26,095 nucleotides of DNA. It comes from a virus. Taxonomy: Duplodnaviria; Heunggongvirae; Uroviricota; Caudoviricetes. The notes under the pieces were generated by a model that saw only the letters and a list, made by a program, of their open reading frames with translations, was not told where the DNA came from and made no database searches. Position 1 is the stretch's first letter; each line of letters begins with the position of its first letter. The stretch is from the IMG/VR virus record IMGVR_UViG_2531839476_000012. One strand, written 5' to 3'. Of the stretch, positions 5,015-16,303 are shown in pieces. Made by a program: the position numbers and the translations under genes.

Positions 5015-5099
5015 TTGCTAACGAATCATCCTGGACTTCATATGCCCCAGGCGGCTACTTCGTGGGCGTCCTGCCTGTTCGTTATCTTTGATATAAAAT

Positions 5100-5113
5100 C
5101 TAACTTAACTTAG
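5100..5113. promoter_or_regulatory. Candidate left operator (oL): 14-bp palindrome CTAACTTAACTTAG
   Basis: Same CTAA(C/G)-N4-CTTAG architecture as the two palindromes in the cI-cro intergenic region; lies just downstream of the cI stop. Confidence 0.45.
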
Positions 5114-5178
5114 TTATCATGACAAGAGAAAACACCAAACTTTTCTTGGTTCGGTGCCTTAGTTAGAGAAGAGAGGTC

Positions 5179-5805
5179 TTAGAGTTCGTATTGAACTCCT
5201 TTGACTACACCAATGATAAGGCAATTACCATTGATAGGGATGTTGGGATACCGAGGATTTAATGGCACTAAAAACTTTTGAGGGCCATCGATGACTAATT
5301 TTTTTACTGTAGCTTCGTTTGTTCCATCAAGTCGAGCGATGACTATTTTTCCATGACGAGGTTCTGCATCTGGATCTACAATCACTGTTGCGCCTTCTGG
5401 TATTGTTGGGAGGCCATTAGGGTTAGTCATGGAGTCACCTTTAACCTCTAATGCAAATGAGTTATCACCAACCTTTAATGATGTATCTACCCACTTGTCC
5501 ACTTCACTAAACACTTCTGCTGCCCTGCACTCAGTAAACTGCCCAGCCTGAACCCACGATATTACAGGAACTCTGCGCATGTTTGTGACGAGTTTGCCTT
5601 CAAACTCAGCACCGTAAAGAATGTAATCTATTGACGTATTGAAGAACTTCGCTAATTTCGAAAGTGCCTCCCCGCCAGGGGTATTGATGTCTTTCTCCCA
5701 GTACCCCACAGCAACGTCGCTTACTCCACAAAATTTACCCAATTCTTTCTGGGACGTTCTGGTAACTCTTCTCAGAGCTTTTATACGCTGACCAACCGTT
5801 TCCAT
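5179..5805 (-). CDS. cI: cI-type prophage repressor (HTH plus LexA-like S24 self-cleaving peptidase domain), 208 aa
   Basis: N-terminal HTH (TSQKELGKFCGVSDVAVGYWE); Ala-Gly cleavage site (VQAGQF); catalytic Ser in GDSM and downstream Lys (ATVKKL); divergent from the cro-like gene. Confidence 0.9.
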   Translation of the reverse strand: METVGQRIKALRRVTRTSQKELGKFCGVSDVAVGYWEKDINTPGGEALSKLAKFFNTSIDYILYGAEFEGKLVTNMRRVPVISWVQAGQFTECRAAEVFSEVDKWVDTSLKVGDNSFALEVKGDSMTNPNGLPTIPEGATVIVDPDAEPRHGKIVIARLDGTNEATVKKLVIDGPQKFLVPLNPRYPNIPINGNCLIIGVVKGVQYEL

Positions 5806-5827: not shown

Positions 5828-5890
5828 CTAAGTAATCTTAGTTTTTATTGACCAAAGATAGATTTGTAATTAGCATCTAACAAAACTTAG
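5828..5890. promoter_or_regulatory. Immunity switch (oR/pR/pRM): two 14-bp operator palindromes flanking a -35-like TTGACC
   Basis: O1 CTAAGTAATCTTAG (5828-5841); O2 CTAACAAAACTTAG (5877-5890); TTGACC at 5848-5853; GGAGGG RBS for cro at 5894-5899. Confidence 0.6.
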
Positions 5891-5902
5891 TTTGGAGGGC
5901 GT

Positions 5903-6103
5903 ATGACAACTGACGATATCGAAAGCTACTTCGGCAGTATTGAGAAAGTTGCTGCTTTTTTCGGCATAACAACTGAAGCCGTTTATCAGTGGCGAAACCG
6001 TCCGGGCCAGTTAATTCCAAAAGGACGTGCAGCAGAAGCTGCATATAGAACTTGCGGACGGTTGCCATTTAAACCTGAGCTTTATGAAAAATCTAATGGA
6101 TAA
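5903..6103 (+). CDS. cro: Cro-like small DNA-binding regulator, 66 aa
   Basis: Divergent from cI across the operator region; GGAGGG Shine-Dalgarno; small basic protein with an HTH-like segment (ITTEAVYQWRNRPGQ). Confidence 0.75.
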   Translation: MTTDDIESYFGSIEKVAAFFGITTEAVYQWRNRPGQLIPKGRAAEAAYRTCGRLPFKPELYEKSNG

Positions 6104-6692
6104 ATCGATTAACAGAAACCACAGAACGATGAGGCTAACCGTGGGTAAGCATCACTGGAAAGTAGAAAAACAGCCTGAGTGGTACGTGAAAGCTGTCAGA
6201 AAAACTATCGCAAAGTTGCCGGGTGGTTACGCTGAAGCAGCTGACTGGCTGGATGTAACAGAGAACGCATTATTTAACCGCCTTCGTGCCGATGGCGATC
6301 AGATTTTCCCGCTGGGATGGGCAATGATTTTGCAACGTGCTGGTGGAACTCACTTCATTGCTGACGCAGTGGCGCAGTCTGCAAATGGCGTCTTTGTGTC
6401 TCTTCCTGACGTCGAGGATGTGGACAACGCCGATATTAACCAGCGCCTGCTGGAAGTCATTGAACAGATCGGCAGTTATTCAAAACAGATTCGTTCAGCA
6501 ATTGAAGACGGTGTAGTGGAACCGCATGAGAAGACAGCAATTAACGACGAGCTGTACCTCTCAATTTCGAAGCTGCAGGAGCATGCAGCACTGGTCTACA
6601 AAATTTTTTGCATTTCAGAAAGTAATGACGCCCGCGAGTGTGCAGCTCCGGGCGCCGTGGCGTGTCGTGACTGTGGAGAAACTAACGCATGA
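6084..6692 (+). CDS. Hypothetical early regulatory protein in the cII position (about 199-202 aa)
   Basis: ORF directly downstream of cro in the rightward operon. Start is ATG 6084 or ATG 6096, both overlapping the cro 3' end. C-terminal CxxC-like motif (CRDCGETNA). Assignment is by position only. Confidence 0.5.
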
Positions 6693-7027: not shown

Positions 7028-7047
7028 AGGTCGGTCATGAGCACTAA
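6868..7047 (+). CDS. Candidate small ORF (59 aa, TTG start) or displaced C-terminus of the preceding gene
   Basis: Perfect AAGGAG Shine-Dalgarno at 6854-6859, 8 nt before TTG 6868. Translation [59 protein letters not shown], ending TAA 7045-7047. Below the ORF-track size cutoff. Confidence 0.35.
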
Positions 7048-7978
7048 ATTAACCGGCTATGTATGGGATGGTTGCGCTGCATCAGGCATGAAATTATCCA
7101 GCGTGGCAATTATGGCCCGCCTGGCTGATTTCAGTAATGACGAAGGTGTGTGCTGGCCATCAATTGAAACCATTGCCCGCCAGATTGGCGCGGGGATGAG
7201 TACCGTCAGAACGGCTATCGCACGGCTGGAAGCAGAAGGCTGGTTAACGCGTAGGGCGCGTCGCCAGGGTAACCGCAATGCGTCGAATGTTTATCAGCTT
7301 AACGTTGCGAAGCTTCAGGCAGCGGCATTTTCTCAACTGTCAGATTCTGACCCGTCAAAATCTGACGCATCAAAATCTGACCCGTCAAAATTTGATGCGT
7401 CGAAATCTGGCAAAAAAGCGGGTTTTCACCCGTCAGAATCTGGTGGGGATCCGTCAGTAAAATCAAAACATGATCCGTCAGATAAAAAAACTTCTCGTCC
7501 GGACGCTTCGCAACCGGACACGCAGACGGCTGAACAGGATTTTTTAACTCGCCATCCTGATGCGGTTGTATTCAGCCCTAAAAAGCGCCAGTGGGGGACG
7601 CAGGATGATTTGACCTGCGCACAGTGGCTCTGGAAAAAAATCATCGCCCTGTACGAGCATGCCGCCGAATGTGACGGCGAGGTGGTTCGTCCCAAAGAAC
7701 CGAACTGGACAGCCTGGGCAAACGAAATTCGCCTGATGTGTGTGCAGGATGGTCGTACTCATAAACAAATCTGCGAGATGTACAGCCGCGTCAGTCGCGA
7801 TCCGTTCTGGTGCCGTAACGTGCTCAGCCCGTCGAAGCTGCGGGAAAAATGGGATGAGCTTTCCCTGCGCTTATCGCCGTCCGTCAGCACGTACACCGAA
7901 AAACGCGAAGACCCGTACTTCAAAGCCAGTTACGACAACGTGGACTACAGCCAGATCCCGGCAGGATTCAGGGGGTGA
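7037..7978 (+). CDS. Replication initiator (O-like; N-terminal winged-helix DNA-binding domain, SD(P/A)SK repeat linker, C-terminal domain), 313 aa
   Basis: N-terminal HTH region (SVAIMARLADFSNDEGVCWPSIETIARQIGAGMSTVRTAIARLEAEGWL); internal tandem 15-bp iterons encode SDPSKSDASKSDPSKFDASKS; position after the cII-like gene mirrors lambda O with its internal ori. Confidence 0.7.
   Translation: MSTKLTGYVWDGCAASGMKLSSVAIMARLADFSNDEGVCWPSIETIARQIGAGMSTVRTAIARLEAEGWLTRRARRQGNRNASNVYQLNVAKLQAAAFSQLSDSDPSKSDASKSDPSKFDASKSGKKAGFHPSESGGDPSVKSKHDPSDKKTSRPDASQPDTQTAEQDFLTRHPDAVVFSPKKRQWGTQDDLTCAQWLWKKIIALYEHAAECDGEVVRPKEPNWTAWANEIRLMCVQDGRTHKQICEMYSRVSRDPFWCRNVLSPSKLREKWDELSLRLSPSVSTYTEKREDPYFKASYDNVDYSQIPAGFRG
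7346..7490. repeat. Putative replication origin: 15-bp tandem iterons with internal dyad CGTCA-N5-TGACG, followed by an A-rich tract
   Basis: TCTGACCCGTCAAAA / TCTGACGCATCAAAA / TCTGACCCGTCAAAA / TTTGATGCGTCGAAA in tandem (7346-7405), further CCGTCAG-containing copies to about 7480, then GATAAAAAAA (7481-7490). Confidence 0.65.
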
Positions 7979-7980
7979 TC

Positions 7981-8469
7981 ATGAGTCTTTTGAATGACGT
8001 TCAGAAATTCATTGAAGCCCATCCGGGGTGTACTTCCGGAGACATTGCGGATGCTTTTGCAGGTTACTCACGACAGCGCGTTCTGCAGTCAGCAAGCAAG
8101 TTACGTCAGAGTGGGCGTGTGGCTCACCGTTGTGAAGGGGATACACGCAGACATTTCCCGCGGCTGACTGAGATACCGCAGGAGCCGGAACCGCAACCAG
8201 TTCGTGAATCCAGACCTGTGCGCAATTTCTATGTCGGCACTAACGATCCCCGGGTGATTTTGTGCCTGACCCGCCAGGCGGAAGAACTGGAGTCCAGGGG
8301 CTTATACCGTCGTGCTGCAACGGTGTGGATGGCGGCATTCCGTGAAAGCCACTCCCAGCAAGAGCGAAACAATTTTCTTGCGCGTCGTGAGCGGTGTTTA
8401 CGGAAAAGCAGCAAGCGCGCTGCATCGGGTGAAGAGTGGTATCTGTCAGGGAATTACGTGGGGGCTTAA
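7981..8469 (+). CDS. Hypothetical protein with a PerC/ANR-like C-terminal motif, 162 aa
   Basis: ATG 7981 with a GGGGG Shine-Dalgarno; C-terminal segment (ELESRGLYRRAATVWMAAFRESHSQQERNNFLARRERCL) recalled as resembling PerC/ANR-family regulators. Confidence 0.5.
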   Translation: MSLLNDVQKFIEAHPGCTSGDIADAFAGYSRQRVLQSASKLRQSGRVAHRCEGDTRRHFPRLTEIPQEPEPQPVRESRPVRNFYVGTNDPRVILCLTRQAEELESRGLYRRAATVWMAAFRESHSQQERNNFLARRERCLRKSSKRAASGEEWYLSGNYVGA

Positions 8470-9122
8470 TGAGTAATAAATATTGCCAGGCGCTGGTGGA
8501 GCTGCGGAACAAACCAGCCCATGAACTGAAGGAAGTGGGCGATCAGTGGCGCACGCCGGACAACATTTTCTGGGGAATTAACACCCTGTTTGGCCCGTTT
8601 GTTCTGGATCTGTTTACTGATGGTGATAACGCCAAATGCGCCGCGTATTACACTGCGGAAGACAACGCGCTGGCGCATGACTGGTCAGAACGTCTTGCGG
8701 AGCTTAAAGGTGCTGCCTTTGGTAATCCCCCGTACAGCCGCGCCAGTCAGCATGAGGGGCAATACATCACCGGCATGCGTTACATCATGAAGCATGCCAG
8801 TGCCATGCGTGATAAAGGCGGGCGCTATGTTTTCCTGATCAAAGCTGCCACCAGCGAAGTTTGGTGGCCGGAAGATGCAGACCATATTGCTTTTATTCGC
8901 GGGCGTATTGGTTTTGAACTGCCAGCCTGGTTTATCCCGAAGGACGAGAAGCAGGTGCCGACAGGCGCTTTCTTCGCTGGTGCTATTGCTGTTTTCGACA
9001 AGACCCGGAAGGGACCGGCAATCAGCTACATCGGGCGCGATGAACTTGAGGCATGTGGTGAGGCCTTTCTGGCGCAGGTTCGCCAGCAGGCGGAAAAACT
9101 GGTCAGGGAGATGGCGGCATGA
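8469..9122 (+). CDS. Phage orphan DNA N6-adenine methyltransferase, 217 aa
   Basis: Catalytic NPPY motif (AFGNPPYSR); TAATG overlap with the upstream stop; no adjacent restriction endonuclease gene. Confidence 0.8.
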   Translation: MSNKYCQALVELRNKPAHELKEVGDQWRTPDNIFWGINTLFGPFVLDLFTDGDNAKCAAYYTAEDNALAHDWSERLAELKGAAFGNPPYSRASQHEGQYITGMRYIMKHASAMRDKGGRYVFLIKAATSEVWWPEDADHIAFIRGRIGFELPAWFIPKDEKQVPTGAFFAGAIAVFDKTRKGPAISYIGRDELEACGEAFLAQVRQQAEKLVREMAA

Positions 9123-9445
9123 CGACGTTAACTCAATGCCAGCAGCAGGTGCTGGATATGCTGATTTCTTACCAGCAAGAACGTGGCTTTCCGCCAACCA
9201 ATCAGGAGGTGGCAACCATGCTGGGATACCGTTCGGTGAATGCAGCGGTGGAGCATCTTCGCGCACTGGAGAAAAAAGGCGTCATCACGATAAAGCGTGG
9301 CGTGGCCCGGGGGATAACTCTTCATACCGCGGTGAAGGACGACGACAGCGAGGCGGTCGGGATTATCCGCGCACTGCTTGCCGGTGAGGAAAACGCCAGG
9401 CTGCGTGCAGCCCACTGGTTACATGAGAGGGGCCTGAAAGTATGA
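9119..9445 (+). CDS. LexA-like protein with the N-terminal DNA-binding domain only (no S24 peptidase domain), 108 aa
   Basis: Clear pattern match to the LexA N-terminal winged-helix domain (LTQCQQQVLDMLISYQQERGFPPTNQEVATMLGYRSVNAAVEHLRALEKKGVITIKRGVARGITL); the protein ends about 40 aa after the domain. Confidence 0.75.
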   Translation: MTTLTQCQQQVLDMLISYQQERGFPPTNQEVATMLGYRSVNAAVEHLRALEKKGVITIKRGVARGITLHTAVKDDDSEAVGIIRALLAGEENARLRAAHWLHERGLKV

Positions 9446-9831
9446 AGCTGATCTTGCCTTTCCCGCCCAGCGTGAACACGTACTGGCGACACCCCAACAA
9501 AGGGGCGTTTGCTGGTAAGAGTCTGATAAGCGCAGCGGGGCGCAAATTCCAGAGCGCGGCGTGCGCAGCAATAGTTGAGCAGTTACGTCGTCTGCCGAAA
9601 CCAACGTCGGCACCTGCTTCAGTGGAGATCGTGTTGTTTCCTCCGGATAACCGGATCCGCGATCTGGACAACTATAACAAGGCGCTGTTTGACGCCCTGA
9701 CCCATGCGGGTGTGTGGGAAGACGACAGTCAGGTGAAAAGAATGCTGGTGGAGTGGGGACCGGTTATCCCGAAAGGGAAGGTCGAGATCACTATCAGTAA
9801 GTACGAGAAAACGGCGGGTGCAGCCGCCTGA
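9442..9831 (+). CDS. rusA: RusA-family Holliday junction resolvase, 129 aa
   Basis: Conserved RusA motifs (LPFPPSVNTYWRH, DLDNYNKALFDALTHAGVWEDDSQV); ATGA overlap with the upstream gene. Confidence 0.85.
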   Translation: MKLILPFPPSVNTYWRHPNKGAFAGKSLISAAGRKFQSAACAAIVEQLRRLPKPTSAPASVEIVLFPPDNRIRDLDNYNKALFDALTHAGVWEDDSQVKRMLVEWGPVIPKGKVEITISKYEKTAGAAA

Positions 9832-9850
9832 TCAAGAGGAGAAACGAAGT

Positions 9851-10456
9851 ATGAATAATCTGATGGTCATTGATGGTATTGAAGTTCGTCGTGATGCTTA
9901 TGGGCGTTACAGCCTGAACGATCTGCATCGCGCAGCAGTAGCATCTGGTGCAAATGCCAGAACCAAGGAGCCGGGAAAGTTTCTTTCCAGCCAACAAACT
10001 GTTGAGCTTGTTCATGAATTGACCAACACCCAGAATTTGGGTGTTGACCCGGTGAGTGTGATTCATGGGGGAAATGAACGGGGAACGTATGTCTGCAAGG
10101 AACTGGTGTATGCCTATGCAATGTGGATCAGCCCGTCATTCCATCTGAAGGTGATCCGTACTTTCGATATGGTAACCAGCGCACCGGAAAAATTATCCGG
10201 ACAGGCTGCTGACAAGATGCAGGCTGGCGTGATCCTGCTGGACTTTATGCGCCGGGAGTTAAACCTGTCTAACTCTTCAGTGCTTGGTGCCTGTCAGAAA
10301 CTCCAGGAGGCTGTTGGCTTACCGAATCTGGCACCGCGCTATGCCATTGATGCTCCTGCTGATGCACACGATGGCTCAAGTCGCCCGACACTGTCACTGA
10401 GTGCACTGCTGAAACAGTATGGTATACGCCTGACGGCTAATCAGGCATATCACTAG
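9851..10456 (+). CDS. KilA-N domain protein, 201 aa
   Basis: ATG 9851 preceded by AGGAGA; N-terminal KilA-N-like region (MNNLMVIDGIEVRRDAYGRYSLNDLHRAA). Confidence 0.7.
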   Translation: MNNLMVIDGIEVRRDAYGRYSLNDLHRAAVASGANARTKEPGKFLSSQQTVELVHELTNTQNLGVDPVSVIHGGNERGTYVCKELVYAYAMWISPSFHLKVIRTFDMVTSAPEKLSGQAADKMQAGVILLDFMRRELNLSNSSVLGACQKLQEAVGLPNLAPRYAIDAPADAHDGSSRPTLSLSALLKQYGIRLTANQAYH

Positions 10457-10660
10457 ATGGTGAAACTGGGGATCGTCGAGCAGCGCGAACGATACAGCCG
10501 TACAGCGATTAACAACATCAAAAAATTCTGGTCGCTGACAGCGAAAGGTTGCATGTTCGGCAAGAACATCACCAGTCCCGCAAATCCGCGCGAGACACAG
10601 CCGCATTTCTTCGAATCCCGATTCCCTGAGCTGTTAAAGCTGCTCGATACCGTTCATTGA
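10457..10660 (+). CDS. Small hypothetical ORF (67 aa) immediately after the KilA-N gene
   Basis: ATG directly follows the upstream TAG stop; no recognisable motif; could be a displaced C-terminal piece of the KilA-N gene. Confidence 0.3.
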   Translation: MVKLGIVEQRERYSRTAINNIKKFWSLTAKGCMFGKNITSPANPRETQPHFFESRFPELLKLLDTVH

Positions 10661-10661
10661 G

Positions 10662-11657
10662 GTGACCGTGAGAGCACTACTGACCCCTGAAATTGCCCCG
10701 CGTATGGGGATCGTATTGTTCAGGCCAGGTTCAGAGCTGATGCCCCTGTTTATGCAGGGGCGTGTCCTGCTGGAGCCTGAGCCGGAGCGTTATTCATCTT
10801 TCGCCAGTGGTGCCGTTCCGGCGGCATCACAACCGCTGGCGGATGATCCTGCCGTTCGGGCCGTGTTCCGCAATGAGGCAGTGATCCGTCGTGCTGGTGG
10901 CGTGGAATGTCTTGAAAGCTGGTTACTTCGTGAAAAAGGCTGCCAGTGGCCTCATTCCGACTGGCACAGCGAGAACATGACCACAATGCGACACGCTCCG
11001 GGTGCAATCCGTCTGTGCTGGCACTGCGATAACCAGCTGCGCGATCAGTTCACGGAACGGCTGGAATCAATGGCAACGGATAACTGTGCCCGCTGGGTGT
11101 TGTCTGTTGTGCGTCGGGATCTCGGTTTTGATGACAGTCACGTTGTGACAATGCCGGAACTGTGCTGGTGGCTGATTCGTAATGATCTGGCGGATGCCTT
11201 ACCGGAAAGTGCAGCCCGTAAGGCACTGAGATTACCGAAGCCTGTTGTGCCGTCTGTTACCCGGGAAAGTGACCTTGTGCCTTCGGTTCCTGCCACCAGC
11301 ATCATCCAGGATAAGGCGAAAAAGGTGCTGGCGCTGAAAGTGGATCCGGAGTCGCCGGAGTCTTTTATGTTACGCCCAAAACGTCGCCGCTGGGTTAATG
11401 AAAAGTACACGCGCAGGGTTAAGACACAGCCGTGTGCATGTTGTGGAAAGCCAGCTGATGATCCGCATCATCTGATAGGCCATGGTCAGGGTGGAATGGG
11501 TACAAAAGCGCATGACCTTTTTGTGCTGCCTTTGTGCAGAAAACACCACGACGAACTGCATGCGGATACCGTGGCATTTGAAGAGAAGTATGGCTCCCAG
11601 CTGGAGCTGATATTTCGTTTTATCGATCGCGCACTGGCGATTGGTGTGCTGGCCTGA
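10662..11657 (+). CDS. DUF968-like prophage protein with a C-terminal HNH/zinc-finger-like motif, 331 aa
   Basis: C-terminal [28 protein letters not shown]...CRKHHDELH has HNH-like Cys/His spacing; GTG start at 10662 right after the upstream stop. Confidence 0.65.
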
Positions 11658-11674
11658 TTTTGTGGAGAAAGTTA

Positions 11675-13249
<1,575 letters not shown>

Positions 13250-13446: not shown

Positions 13447-14544
13447 TTAGAACTGGTAAACCAGACCTACAGCAACGATGTCATCAGTGCTTACACCGAG
13501 TGCTTTAGTGAAGTCATTTTTGTCAAGCAGGTTGATTTTGTAATCAACGAAAGTAGACATATTTTTGTTGAAGTAATAGGTTGCACCTACATCAACATAT
13601 TTGACTAAGTCCTGATCGCCCCATACTCCAAGATCCTTACCTTTAGATTGCAGGTAAGCAACGGACGGACGCAGACCGAAATCGAACTGATATTGTGCAA
13701 CAGCTTCGAAGTTTTGAGCTTTATTAGCAACGAAGTGATCAGCAAATACAGTCATATTCTGGGTTTCAGAATAGGTAGTGGCCAGGTAAATGTTGTTAGC
13801 GTCATATTTCAGACCTGCGGCCCAAACTTCTGCATTTTTACCGGAAGCAAATACTTCAGGAAGAACTTTCCCTGCATTAACTTGAGTGTCGGTACGATCA
13901 GATTTCGCATAAGTTGCACCGATACCGAATCCTTCGTATTCATAGGTAGCAGAGAAACCGAAGCCATCACCGTTACCTTCGGTGTAGTTATCGAAATCGC
14001 TACGATCGTTTTTGCCTTGGTACTGAGCAGCAAAGTTCAGACCATCAACCAGACCAAAGAAGTCGTTGTTACGATAGGTTGCAACACCAGTGGTGCGACC
14101 AGTCATGAACACATCTGTTTGGGTCCAGGTATCGCCACCGAATTCTGGCAGAACGTCAGTCCACGCACCGATGTCGTATGCTACACCGTAGTTACGGCCG
14201 TAATCGATTGAGCCGTAGTCACCGAATTTCAGGCCTGCAAATGCAAGACGGGTTTTGTCTTTGGAGGAACCTTGAGATTCAGCGCGGTTGCCTTTGAATT
14301 CATATTCCCACTGACCGAAACCAGTCAGCTGATCGTTGATTTGGGTTTCGCCTTTGAAGCCCAGACGAACATAAGTAGTATCACCATCATCTGCATCGTT
14401 AGAGGAAAAGTAGTGCTTGGCATTAACTTTCCCGTACAGATCCAGCTTGTTACTGTCTTTATTATAAATTTCAGCTGCCTGAGCAGACATCGCCATCAGT
14501 ACTGATGCAGCTACAGCAGAAATTGCCACTGTTAATTTTTTCAT
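13447..14544 (-). CDS. nmpC: Outer-membrane general porin of the OmpC/NmpC/Lc family, intact 365-aa precursor
   Basis: Signal peptide [23 protein letters not shown]; porin beta-barrel sequence throughout; C-terminal ...VGLVYQF with terminal Phe; opposite in orientation to the surrounding phage genes. Confidence 0.9.
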
Positions 14545-15132: not shown

Positions 15133-15348
15133 ATGAAATTCATGGATAAGTTAACAACTGGAGTCGCCTATGGCACCTCAGCAGGTAGTGCCGGTTACTG
15201 GTTTTTACAGCTGCTCGATAAAGTCACTCCCTCACAGTGGGCAGCAATAGGTGTGCTGGGTAGCCTGGTATTTGGCCTGCTGACGTACCTGACAAACCTT
15301 TATTTCAAGATTAAAGAAGATAAGCGCAAGGCTGCGAGAGGTGAATAA
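15133..15348 (+). CDS. essD: Class II holin with dual-start motif (MKFM), 71 aa
   Basis: GAGGTGGGG Shine-Dalgarno; two in-frame ATGs (15133 and 15142); one or two transmembrane helices; stop overlaps the lysozyme start (TAATG). Confidence 0.85.
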
Positions 15349-15845
15349 TGCCTCCATCATTACGAAAAGCCGTTGCTGCTGCTATTGGTGGCGGAGCAAT
15401 TGCTATAGCATCAGTGTTAATCACTGGCCCAAGTGGTAACGATGGTCTGGAAGGTGTCAGCTACATACCATACAAAGATATTGTTGGTGTATGGACTGTA
15501 TGTCACGGACACACCGGAAAAGACATCATGCTCGGTAAAACGTATACCAAAGCAGAATGCAAAGCACTCTTGAATAAAGACCTTGCCACTGTCGCCAGAC
15601 AAATTAACCCGTATATCAAAGTCGATATACCGGAAACAACGCGCGGCGCTCTTTACTCATTCGTTTACAATGTGGGTGCTGGCAATTTTAGAACATCGAC
15701 GCTTCTTCGCAAAATAAACCAGGGCGATATCAAAGGCGCATGTGATCAGCTGCGTCGCTGGACATACGCTGGCGGTAAGCAATGGAAAGGCCTGATGACT
15801 CGTCGTGAGATTGAGCGTGAAGTCTGTTTGTGGGGGCAACAGTGA
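15348..15845 (+). CDS. rrrD: Phage endolysin, 165 aa (lysozyme with an N-terminal signal-anchor-like segment)
   Basis: Hydrophobic N-terminal segment ([18 protein letters not shown]) followed by a lysozyme-like domain; sequence recalled as RrrD/R21-like. Confidence 0.9.
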
Positions 15846-16303
15846 GCAGAGTAACCGCGATTATATCCGCTCTGATTATCTGCATCATCGTCAGCCTGTC
15901 ATGGGCGGTCAATCATTACCGTGATAACGCAATCGCCTACAAAGCCCAGCGCGACAAAAATGCCAGAGAACTGAAGCTAGCGAACGCGGCAATTACTGAC
16001 ATGCAGATGCGTCAGCGTGATGTTGCTGCGCTCGATGCAAAATACACGAAGGAGTTAGCTGATGCGAAAGCTGAAAATGATGCTCTGCGTGATGATGTTG
16101 CCGCTGGTCGTCGTCGGTTGCACATCAAAGCAGTCTGTCAGTCAGTGCGTGAAGCCACCACGGCCTCCGGCGTGGATAATGCAGCCTCCCCCCGACTGGC
16201 AGACACCGCTGAACGGGATTATTTCACCCTCAGAGAGAGGCTGATCACTATGCAAAAACAACTGGAAGGAACCCAGAAGTATATTAATGAGCAGTGCAGA
16301 TAG
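15842..16303 (+). CDS. rzpD: Rz-like inner-membrane spanin, 153 aa
   Basis: GTG start overlapping the lysozyme stop; N-terminal transmembrane helix then a coiled-coil periplasmic domain. Confidence 0.8.
16062..16244 (+). CDS. rzoD: Rz1-like outer-membrane lipoprotein spanin, embedded in another frame of the Rz gene, 60 aa
   Basis: Lipobox LVVVGC; proline-rich mature region ([18 protein letters not shown]); lies entirely within 15842-16303. Confidence 0.75.

Follow-up and report, generated by a model that had tools for sequence, protein, structure and literature searches.

In LexA of Escherichia coli the C-terminal S24 domain carries the catalytic Ser119/Lys156 dyad and also forms the dimer, and the cleavage site, Ala84-Gly85, is placed in a strand-loop region. 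In the BlaI/MecI repressors it is a C-terminal helical module that mediates dimerisation. The DNA-contacting residues of LexA are Ser39, Asn41, Ala42, Glu44 and Glu45, as listed in PMC3091678, and the two N-terminal domains of LexA were found to share an extensive interface when on operator DNA, in synergy with binding (PMC3159453). The gp6 protein of GIL01, a tectivirus of Bacillus thuringiensis, is a truncated LexA homologue that comprises the DNA-binding domain only. It binds its own palindrome, GaCACAnnTGTGaC, in the nanomolar range, and this dyad site differs from the LexA box; at the late promoter P3, which is repressed by host LexA, gp6 acts as an activator (PMC6182141). The ninR region of phage lambda holds NinH, a small double-stranded DNA-binding protein, beside the Rap resolvase, and DUF968 proteins were described as an Orf/NinB-like domain fused to an HNH nuclease (PMC4118853). 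Here we present the analysis of a phage gene for a LexA-type DNA-binding domain without the S24 domain. It is located on the 26,095-nt IMG/VR record IMGVR_UViG_2531839476_000012 (Caudoviricetes), and this whole stretch, a lambdoid prophage, is called the window in the following. With a probability of roughly one half, we consider the gene product to be a dimeric, RecA-insensitive and sequence-specific regulator, derived from LexA and with a DNA target of its own, like gp6 of GIL01.

The open reading frame of the LexA-domain gene was intact in the list of open reading frames and in the sequence, from the ATG at 9119 to the TGA at 9443-9445, and its product has 108 aa. The gene and the parts of its product are positioned as follows.

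9119..9445, + strand: LexA-domain gene, PHROG 362 (open reading frame list; PF01726, E 2.6e-19; PHROG 362, E 2.6e-59; ratio of nonsynonymous to synonymous divergence, dN/dS, approx. 0.07)
9119..9313, + strand: LexA-type winged helix-turn-helix (HTH) DNA-binding domain, codons 1-65 (Pfam match and AlphaFold model, AF2)
9233..9274, + strand: recognition helix III, codons 39-52, SVNAAVEHLRALEK (alignments; 9 synonymous and 0 nonsynonymous variants)
9329..9343, + strand: acidic linker AVKDD, codons 71-75 (predicted local distance difference test, pLDDT, below 50; insertions and deletions in the family alignment)
9344..9442, + strand: predicted C-terminal two-helix hairpin in place of the S24 domain, codons 76-108 (AF2 helices 76-87 and 93-103)

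The original prediction had described the product as a homologue of the LexA N-terminal domain that lacks an S24 domain, and this description was confirmed. The Pfam family LexA_DNA_bind (PF01726) matched residues 1-65 over the full profile (positions 1-65 of 65) with 69 bits, the cutoff being 23.7. The lexA equivalog profile TIGR00498 of NCBIfam was matched at positions 1-91 of 203 only, and the score of 70 bits was under its 111-bit cutoff. By phmmer against the PDB, the E. coli LexA entries 1lea, 1jhh and 3jso were the best solved-structure relatives (E approx. 1e-15). BLASTP against an E. coli LexA sequence that agrees with the PDB alignments gave 43% identity over residues 1-90 (E 2e-21). 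The AF2 model, a monomer obtained with 12 family sequences as input (mean pLDDT 82), predicted a winged helix with helices at residues 6-22, 28-35 and 40-52 and a two-strand wing at 56-58 and 66-68. It could be superposed on the LexA-DNA crystal structure 3jso with 1.0-1.1 Å over 67-68 residues at 50% identity, which is also the approximate identity to LexA within the DNA-binding domain. The RGI motif of the LexA wing was kept in the phage protein.

No match to the S24 peptidase family PF00717 was detected when the 108-aa protein was scanned with Pfam, and the chain ends at residue 108. Because the S24 protease and a conserved Ala-Gly site are missing, self-cleavage triggered by RecA* is impossible, as had been foreseen, and RecA would very probably be unable to inactivate the protein. 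The segment LLAGE of the phage protein aligns with the LexA cleavage site VAAGE and sits at the turn of the hairpin; in relatives its Ala-Gly pair was found as AN, VG, ER, TR, SG, DD, AE, AD or AC. We considered whether LLAGE might be cleaved in trans by S24 peptidases or serve them as a pseudo-substrate and rejected this, because the Ala-Gly pair is unconserved and the segment is predicted to be helical, a turn between two helices with no strand-loop.

The linker that precedes the hairpin (residues 71-75) differs in length between relatives. Within the hairpin tail the L86/L87-type positions, A97 and L101 were conserved in distant homologues, in a hydrophobic pattern that included the equivalent of I83. 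As judged from the model, the tail is probably a dimerisation module that substitutes for the C-terminal dimer of LexA.

Selection was analysed in 83 further close copies of the gene (80 IMG/VR loci together with phage and genome hits), that is 84 with the window, which comprised 51 distinct alleles. The 324-nt frame was intact in all of them. Mean divergence from the window allele was 0.092 at synonymous and 0.006 at nonsynonymous sites, giving a dN/dS of approx. 0.07 (51 alleles). Codons 1-70 contained 33 synonymous versus 2 amino-acid variants (52 alleles), the recognition helix, codons 39-52, contained 9 and 0, and the C-terminal tail 16 and 10. We concluded that the LexA-domain gene is real and under strong purifying selection, which is strongest on the DNA-binding domain. 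These data bear on whether the gene could be a functionless, decaying remnant of a captured lexA. It does look like a truncated lexA, and decay is seen elsewhere in the prophage, as an in-frame stop in a KilA-N gene and an insertion sequence (IS) after the antiterminator gene Q. Against this stand the intact frame in 83/83 further copies, the low dN/dS, a C-terminal hairpin that is conserved down to 39-50% identity and the presence of the gene in viable phages, including cdtI, SfV and mEp460, so that a remnant is highly improbable.

A profile search of 1.84 billion representative proteins returned about a dozen further distant clusters, 39-50% identical to the phage protein, that share the winged helix, the linker and the two-helix tail. 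At the LexA contact positions given in PMC3091678 the phage protein has S39, N41, A42, V44 and E45; four of the five contacts are thus kept and Glu44 is replaced by Val. Position 44 was Glu in 26 of 28 retrieved proteins that carry the LexA-type cleavage motif G-x-VAAG, whereas it was Glu in none of the 52 tail-bearing family members (Val in 41, Ala in 5, Phe in 3, and Leu, Thr and Tyr in one each). Helix III occurred in the family in 11 variants (VNAAVEH, VNSAVEH, PNAAAEH, SNAVLLH, GNAAFEH, ANGAFEH, PNAATDM, VNTIAGH, PYAAYEH, QNTVFIH and PNAAATV), and was strictly conserved within each clade. A helix that is variable between clades and fixed within them fits lineage-specific operators. If the family served to occupy a host operator that does not vary, one would expect the LexA recognition helix to be kept, which is not the case here. 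Because helix III has diversified and position 44 is never Glu, the reading of SOS boxes does not appear to be constrained across the family. The proposal of an SOS repressor that RecA cannot cleave was therefore upheld in part only: the suggested alignment of the recognition helix to LexA was run and showed S39, N41, A42 and E45 kept but Glu44 changed to Val, and with Glu44 lost in all 52 members, 11 helices in the family and no SOS box in the window (see below), recognition of LexA boxes is disfavoured.

Many proteins from the representative search contained two tandem LexA_DNA_bind domains and no S24 domain (P0127, P0129, P0135, P0136, P0138, P0142, P0143, P0149, P0173, P0174, P0176 and others). 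They look like single-chain pseudo-dimers, which would be another route to an uncleavable LexA-domain binder. In P0148 (240 aa) the N-terminal LexA domain of the family was joined directly to a DUF968 protein's C-terminal HNH part. This is either a natural fusion, or a deletion across the interval from the tail over rusA to DUF968, or an assembly artefact.

SOS boxes were searched for in the window and in the loci of relatives. In the 26-kb window the pattern CTGT-N8-ACAG with at most one mismatch was matched 9 times, with 8.8 matches expected, and thus occurred at chance level. A 20-bp position weight matrix (PWM), built from E. coli SOS boxes, gave a best score of 8.9 in the window; its training sites scored 12.9-26.9, and the maximum after shuffling was 11.3 on average. 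We concluded that the window prophage carries no SOS box. Among the 80 near-identical loci, a strong SOS box was found within 5 kb of the gene in 40, located within cI or else where a methyltransferase gene downstream of Q begins. In a distant clade with N-terminally extended proteins, here called the N-extended clade, a strong box was present 440-760 bp upstream of the LexA-domain gene in 4/4 loci. At the relatives' loci the boxes read TACTGT-N8-ACAGTA, which is the E. coli type, and scored 20-27 with the PWM.

Such boxes would be expected targets if the protein acted as a LexA that RecA cannot remove, i.e. as a dimer on CTGT-N8-ACAG that re-represses the host SOS genes and the SOS-box genes of the window prophage and of other prophages during lytic growth, after LexA has been cleaved. 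The identity of 43-50% to LexA's DNA-binding domain and the preserved S39, N41, A42 and E45 are consistent with this, as are the strong boxes near half of the close copies and upstream of all four N-extended-clade genes. Given the interface between the N-terminal domains of LexA, a tethered dimer of this domain only could plausibly use the same spacing (PMC3159453). Several results point the other way. Glu44 is Val in the phage protein and was found in none of the 52 family members, as opposed to 26 of the 28 true LexA-like proteins; the recognition helix varies across the family while the loci with SOS boxes share one canonical box; the window prophage has no SOS box; and the C-terminal dimer of LexA is replaced by an unrelated hairpin. 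The four N-extended-clade loci with canonical boxes also had four different helices, NAAAEH, NAVLLH, NTVFIH and YAAYEH, and because four very different helices stand behind essentially one box, we argue that these proteins do not read the adjacent SOS box. A RecA-proof substitute for LexA is thus possible but on the whole unlikely. The more particular claim, that Val44 and the new hairpin still permit SOS-box binding and that the phage, once induced, would re-silence the host SOS regulon together with the LexA-controlled genes or antirepressors of co-resident prophages while the LexA of the host is being destroyed, must be regarded as rather doubtful.

The SOS boxes of relatives occurred in three settings. 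In approx. 20 of the 80 close loci a perfect-looking box, TACTGTTTTTATATACAGTA or TACTGTTTTTACATACAGTA (PWM approx. 25), was situated within the coding sequence of a cI-type S24 repressor, where the linker joins its HTH domain to S24 (e.g. L019:2095-2114 and L001:5265-5284); the cI of the window is of a different type, without an internal SOS box. In approx. 26 of the 80, the box TACTGTAAAAATAAACAGTG overlapped the start-codon region of a gene for a 350-aa N6/N4 DNA methyltransferase downstream of Q (e.g. L012:9086-9105 and L009:7739-7758), which suggests a LexA-controlled phage methyltransferase. The window has the IS and porin genes in place of this region. In the N-extended clade (L008:4540-5010, L009:4540-5010, L093:4225-5010 and L092:495-1030) the strong box was followed by small open reading frames, which included dinI in L092 and, in all four loci, a PHROG 1813 frame of 75-82 aa directly before the LexA-domain gene. 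After these small frames an extended -10-like element, TGATATAAT, was conserved upstream of the LexA-domain gene in L008, L009, L093 and L094. It was followed by the dyad GCTGG-N9-CCAGC in L009, L093 and L094 and by GTAGG-N9-CCTGC, a symmetric change, in L008. The hairpin loop CCTGAACAA is reminiscent of a boxB-type element. As an operator GCTGG-N9-CCAGC is unlikely, since L009 and L093 share the dyad and differ in the recognition helix.

A further operator candidate, CTG-N10-CAG, was matched 12 times in the window with 6.7 matches expected, and four of these sites were clustered in the KilA-N gene. The same half-sites at spacings of 9, 11 and 12 gave 18-29 matches, so that N10 was the lowest of the four, and the motif was rejected as an artefact of CTG and CAG codon usage. 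Operator scans turned up ori-like iterons, cI-type operators and canonical SOS boxes in relatives, and no site that could be assigned to the protein.

The other features of the window that were used to place the gene are listed here.

5179..5805, - strand: cI-type repressor with its own S24 peptidase domain (HTH_3 and Peptidase_S24 matches)
6027-6692, + strand: CII-like gene (domain matches)
7037-7978, + strand: replication-initiator-like gene (domain matches)
7975-8469, + strand: PerC-like gene (domain matches)
8469..9122, + strand: Dam, phage N6-adenine DNA methyltransferase (PF05869, E 2.6e-44; PADLOC MTase_II profile, residues 12-228)
9442..9831, + strand: RusA Holliday-junction resolvase (PF05866, E 6.6e-15)
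9818..10660, + strand: KilA-N gene, split (PF04383 match; read-through translation)
10662..11657, + strand: DUF968 protein, Orf/NinB-like domain and HNH nuclease (PF06147, E 4.5e-79; HNHc_6)
11660..12082, + strand: antiterminator Q, end of the early-right block (PF06530, E 1.5e-53)
12087-13103: IS-type DDE transposase gene, directly after Q (domain matches)
13447-14544, - strand: porin gene, between the IS transposase and the lysis genes
15348-15845 and 15830-16303: lysis genes, lysozyme and Rz

The dam frame was listed from a GTG at 8436, the ATG at 8469 being its likely start. Its stop shares the ATGA at 9119-9122 with the start of the LexA-domain gene, the stop of which overlaps the start of rusA in the same way (ATGA, 9442-9445). 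All three genes are on the + strand, and no terminator-like site was found on this strand between 8436 and 9831. The LexA-domain gene therefore belongs to the early-right, nin-like block, with translational coupling to rusA, in agreement with the earlier claim that the two are transcribed together in a nin-like region. The cI-type repressor is the RecA-sensitive switch of the window prophage. Because the early-right operon is repressed by cI, a quiescent lysogen would normally not produce the LexA-domain protein, which, as far as can be concluded from lambdoid gene organisation, should be made only after induction or infection. For this reason it could not damp the initial induction decision of its own prophage; any effect on SOS or prophage induction, as had also been put forward, would come after induction or infection.

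Some observations on the surrounding prophage are added. The dyads CTAAG-N4-CTTAG, ATCTAAC-N4-CTTAGTT and TAGAT-N11-ATCTA, at 5098-5116, 5828-5841 and 5859-5892, flank the cI-type gene and are probably the immunity operators of the window prophage. Near-perfect dyads and iterons (GTCAGATTCTGAC, GTCAAAATCTGAC, GACGCATCAAAATCTGAC/GTCAAAATTTGATGCGTC) are clustered at 7339-7401 within the initiator-like gene, and this cluster looks like an origin embedded in an initiator gene, by analogy to lambda O. The KilA-N gene has an in-frame TAA at 10454-10456 and is therefore split in the window prophage; the 67-aa frame that follows, 10457-10660, gave a match to positions 206-269 of 273 in PHROG 129, at its C-terminal end. 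The IS may part Q from its late operon, and the window prophage is maybe defective. Among the PADLOC defence models the LexA-domain protein had no match except a weak one to the generic winged-helix model CARF3 (E 4.7e-4), and the neighbours matched only methyltransferase models and, weakly, the candidate family PDC-S22 in the case of KilA-N (E 1.2e-5). Membership of the LexA-domain gene in a defence system was rejected, as it matched no PADLOC component.

The gene order was also compared across relatives. A profile scan of viral contigs returned only copies that were 98-100% identical, and a scan of genome contigs with the alignment of the close copies returned mostly true lexA genes. The gene rusA was located directly 3' of the LexA-domain gene in 80/80 close loci, RusA was encoded at most two genes downstream in 8 of the 9 distant clades, and the stop/start overlap with rusA recurred in several clades. 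Wherever a distant-clade contig extends that far, DUF968 and an antiterminator gene, of the Q-type or the Antiterm-type, were found downstream, and a DNA methyltransferase gene was present upstream in six distant clades. In clade L092 DUF968 was present and rusA was absent.

By analogy, the protein may instead be an accessory DNA-binding protein of the recombination block, working with RusA and/or DUF968, for example by binding or bending junction DNA or by restraining nucleases. The constancy of rusA, which is retained at 39-50% identity of the LexA-domain protein, the recurring overlap and the following DUF968 and antiterminator genes would agree with such a role. The fusion in P0148 points in the same direction, and NinH of lambda, beside a resolvase, is a positional analogue (PMC4118853). 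The conserved order may, however, mean no more than that one module was inherited vertically, in clade L092 the gene is accompanied by DUF968 but not by rusA, and P0148 may be a deletion artefact. A helix that is conserved within lineages yet variable between them is typical of a sequence-specific regulator and not of a structure-specific binder. The RusA-bearing lambdoid elements phage 82 and DLP12 presumably do not have the LexA-domain gene. We consider a recombination accessory quite improbable.

The findings are best explained by a regulator with its own operator. In this explanation the protein would stem from a proteobacterial LexA, namely from its N-terminal domain, and the hairpin would dimerise it, so that two winged helices are placed on a dyad-symmetric site. 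Lying between the replication genes and Q, the gene would share the early-right (PR-type) transcript with dam and rusA and be translated together with them. Because Glu44 is replaced family-wide and the phage lineages have come to differ in their recognition helices, the target would most likely be an own operator, related but not identical to the SOS box. The precedent of gp6 shows, as an analogy, that tight binding to a dyad and a new specificity are both possible for a protein with the LexA domain only. Four points weigh against this explanation. No candidate operator specific to the protein emerged from inverted-repeat scans, dyad enumeration and a listing of intergenic palindromes. The case for dimerisation by the tail consists of a monomer model and the conservation of the sequence only. 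Four of the five LexA base contacts are kept in the E. coli clade, so that an overlap with SOS boxes is possible. Finally, the gene is constantly next to rusA, which could indicate a function other than in transcription.

The gene was found in 2233 of 5426 complete E. coli genomes (approx. 41%), in up to four copies per genome, where it is annotated as "LexA family transcriptional regulator". Many sequenced phages, PhiR29, mEp460 and Stx2a/Stx2c-converting phages among them, had the DNA at 97-99.7% identity, and at the protein level it was 100% identical in phage cdtI and 95-98% in SfV, SfII, SfIV and mEp460. The family is catalogued as PHROG 362 ("transcriptional repressor", approx. 106 aa), the profile of which was matched by residues 1-108 over positions 1-106 of 106. 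Genomic papers on Shiga toxin (Stx) phages give such genes by domain only (PMC8136144), and the "LexA family" repressors of PMC8044961 are immunity repressors. A search of the full-text literature, the coverage of which leaves out most subscription journals, found no functional study of the PHROG 362 family. The family is thus catalogued and very common, yet uncharacterised.

The gene is carried by medically relevant Stx-converting phages and Shigella serotype-converting phages, and its prevalence in prophages of pathogenic E. coli and of Shigella makes a simple binding experiment worthwhile. If SOS boxes are its target, phages would have in this protein a widespread tool that switches the SOS response back off independently of RecA, and this would bear on SOS mutagenesis, antibiotic tolerance, cross-induction and competition of prophages and possibly Shiga-toxin output. 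If it binds its own operator, as we favour, a major lambdoid lineage would have an unrecognised regulator in its delayed-early programme, and the protein would be a second, independent case after gp6 of GIL01 in which a phage re-uses the LexA DNA-binding domain with a new specificity.

Compared to the known systems, the phage protein shares with E. coli LexA the winged-helix fold, the residues S39, N41, A42 and E45 and the RGI wing. Unlike LexA it has no S24/dimerisation domain and no conserved Ala-Gly site, but Val in place of Glu44 and a helical hairpin, and its gene, unlike that of LexA, sits in the early lytic operon of a phage. The PHROG 362 proteins of cdtI, SfV, SfII, SfIV, mEp460 and the Stx2a/Stx2c phages are the same family with the same dam and rusA neighbours, without any substantive difference. 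To the BlaI/MecI-type repressors the protein is alike in design, with an N-terminal winged helix and a small helical C-terminal module. The structural matches were weak (1sd7 and 2g9w; E 0.015-0.04, template modelling score, TM, approx. 0.5, root mean square deviation 7-9 Å) and there is no sequence relationship, so that the likeness is an analogy of design and not family membership. With NinH, which has a different, Fis-like fold, it shares that a gene for a small DNA-binding protein adjoins one for a Holliday-junction resolvase, between the replication genes and Q, but ninH follows rap whereas the LexA-domain gene precedes rusA. The closest counterpart is gp6 of GIL01, likewise a phage-encoded LexA DNA-binding domain without S24 and the product of an early gene. 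In a tblastn search of 50,697 phage records, the 61 records with E of 1e-5 or below were from enterobacterial phages only and none was a Bacillus tectivirus; by sequence, the present family is not close to gp6. Host and phage type differ as well, and gp6 is described as the winged helix alone, without the two-helix tail predicted for the present protein. In late control, gp6 acts at P3, whereas the late genes of the window are placed behind Q antitermination.

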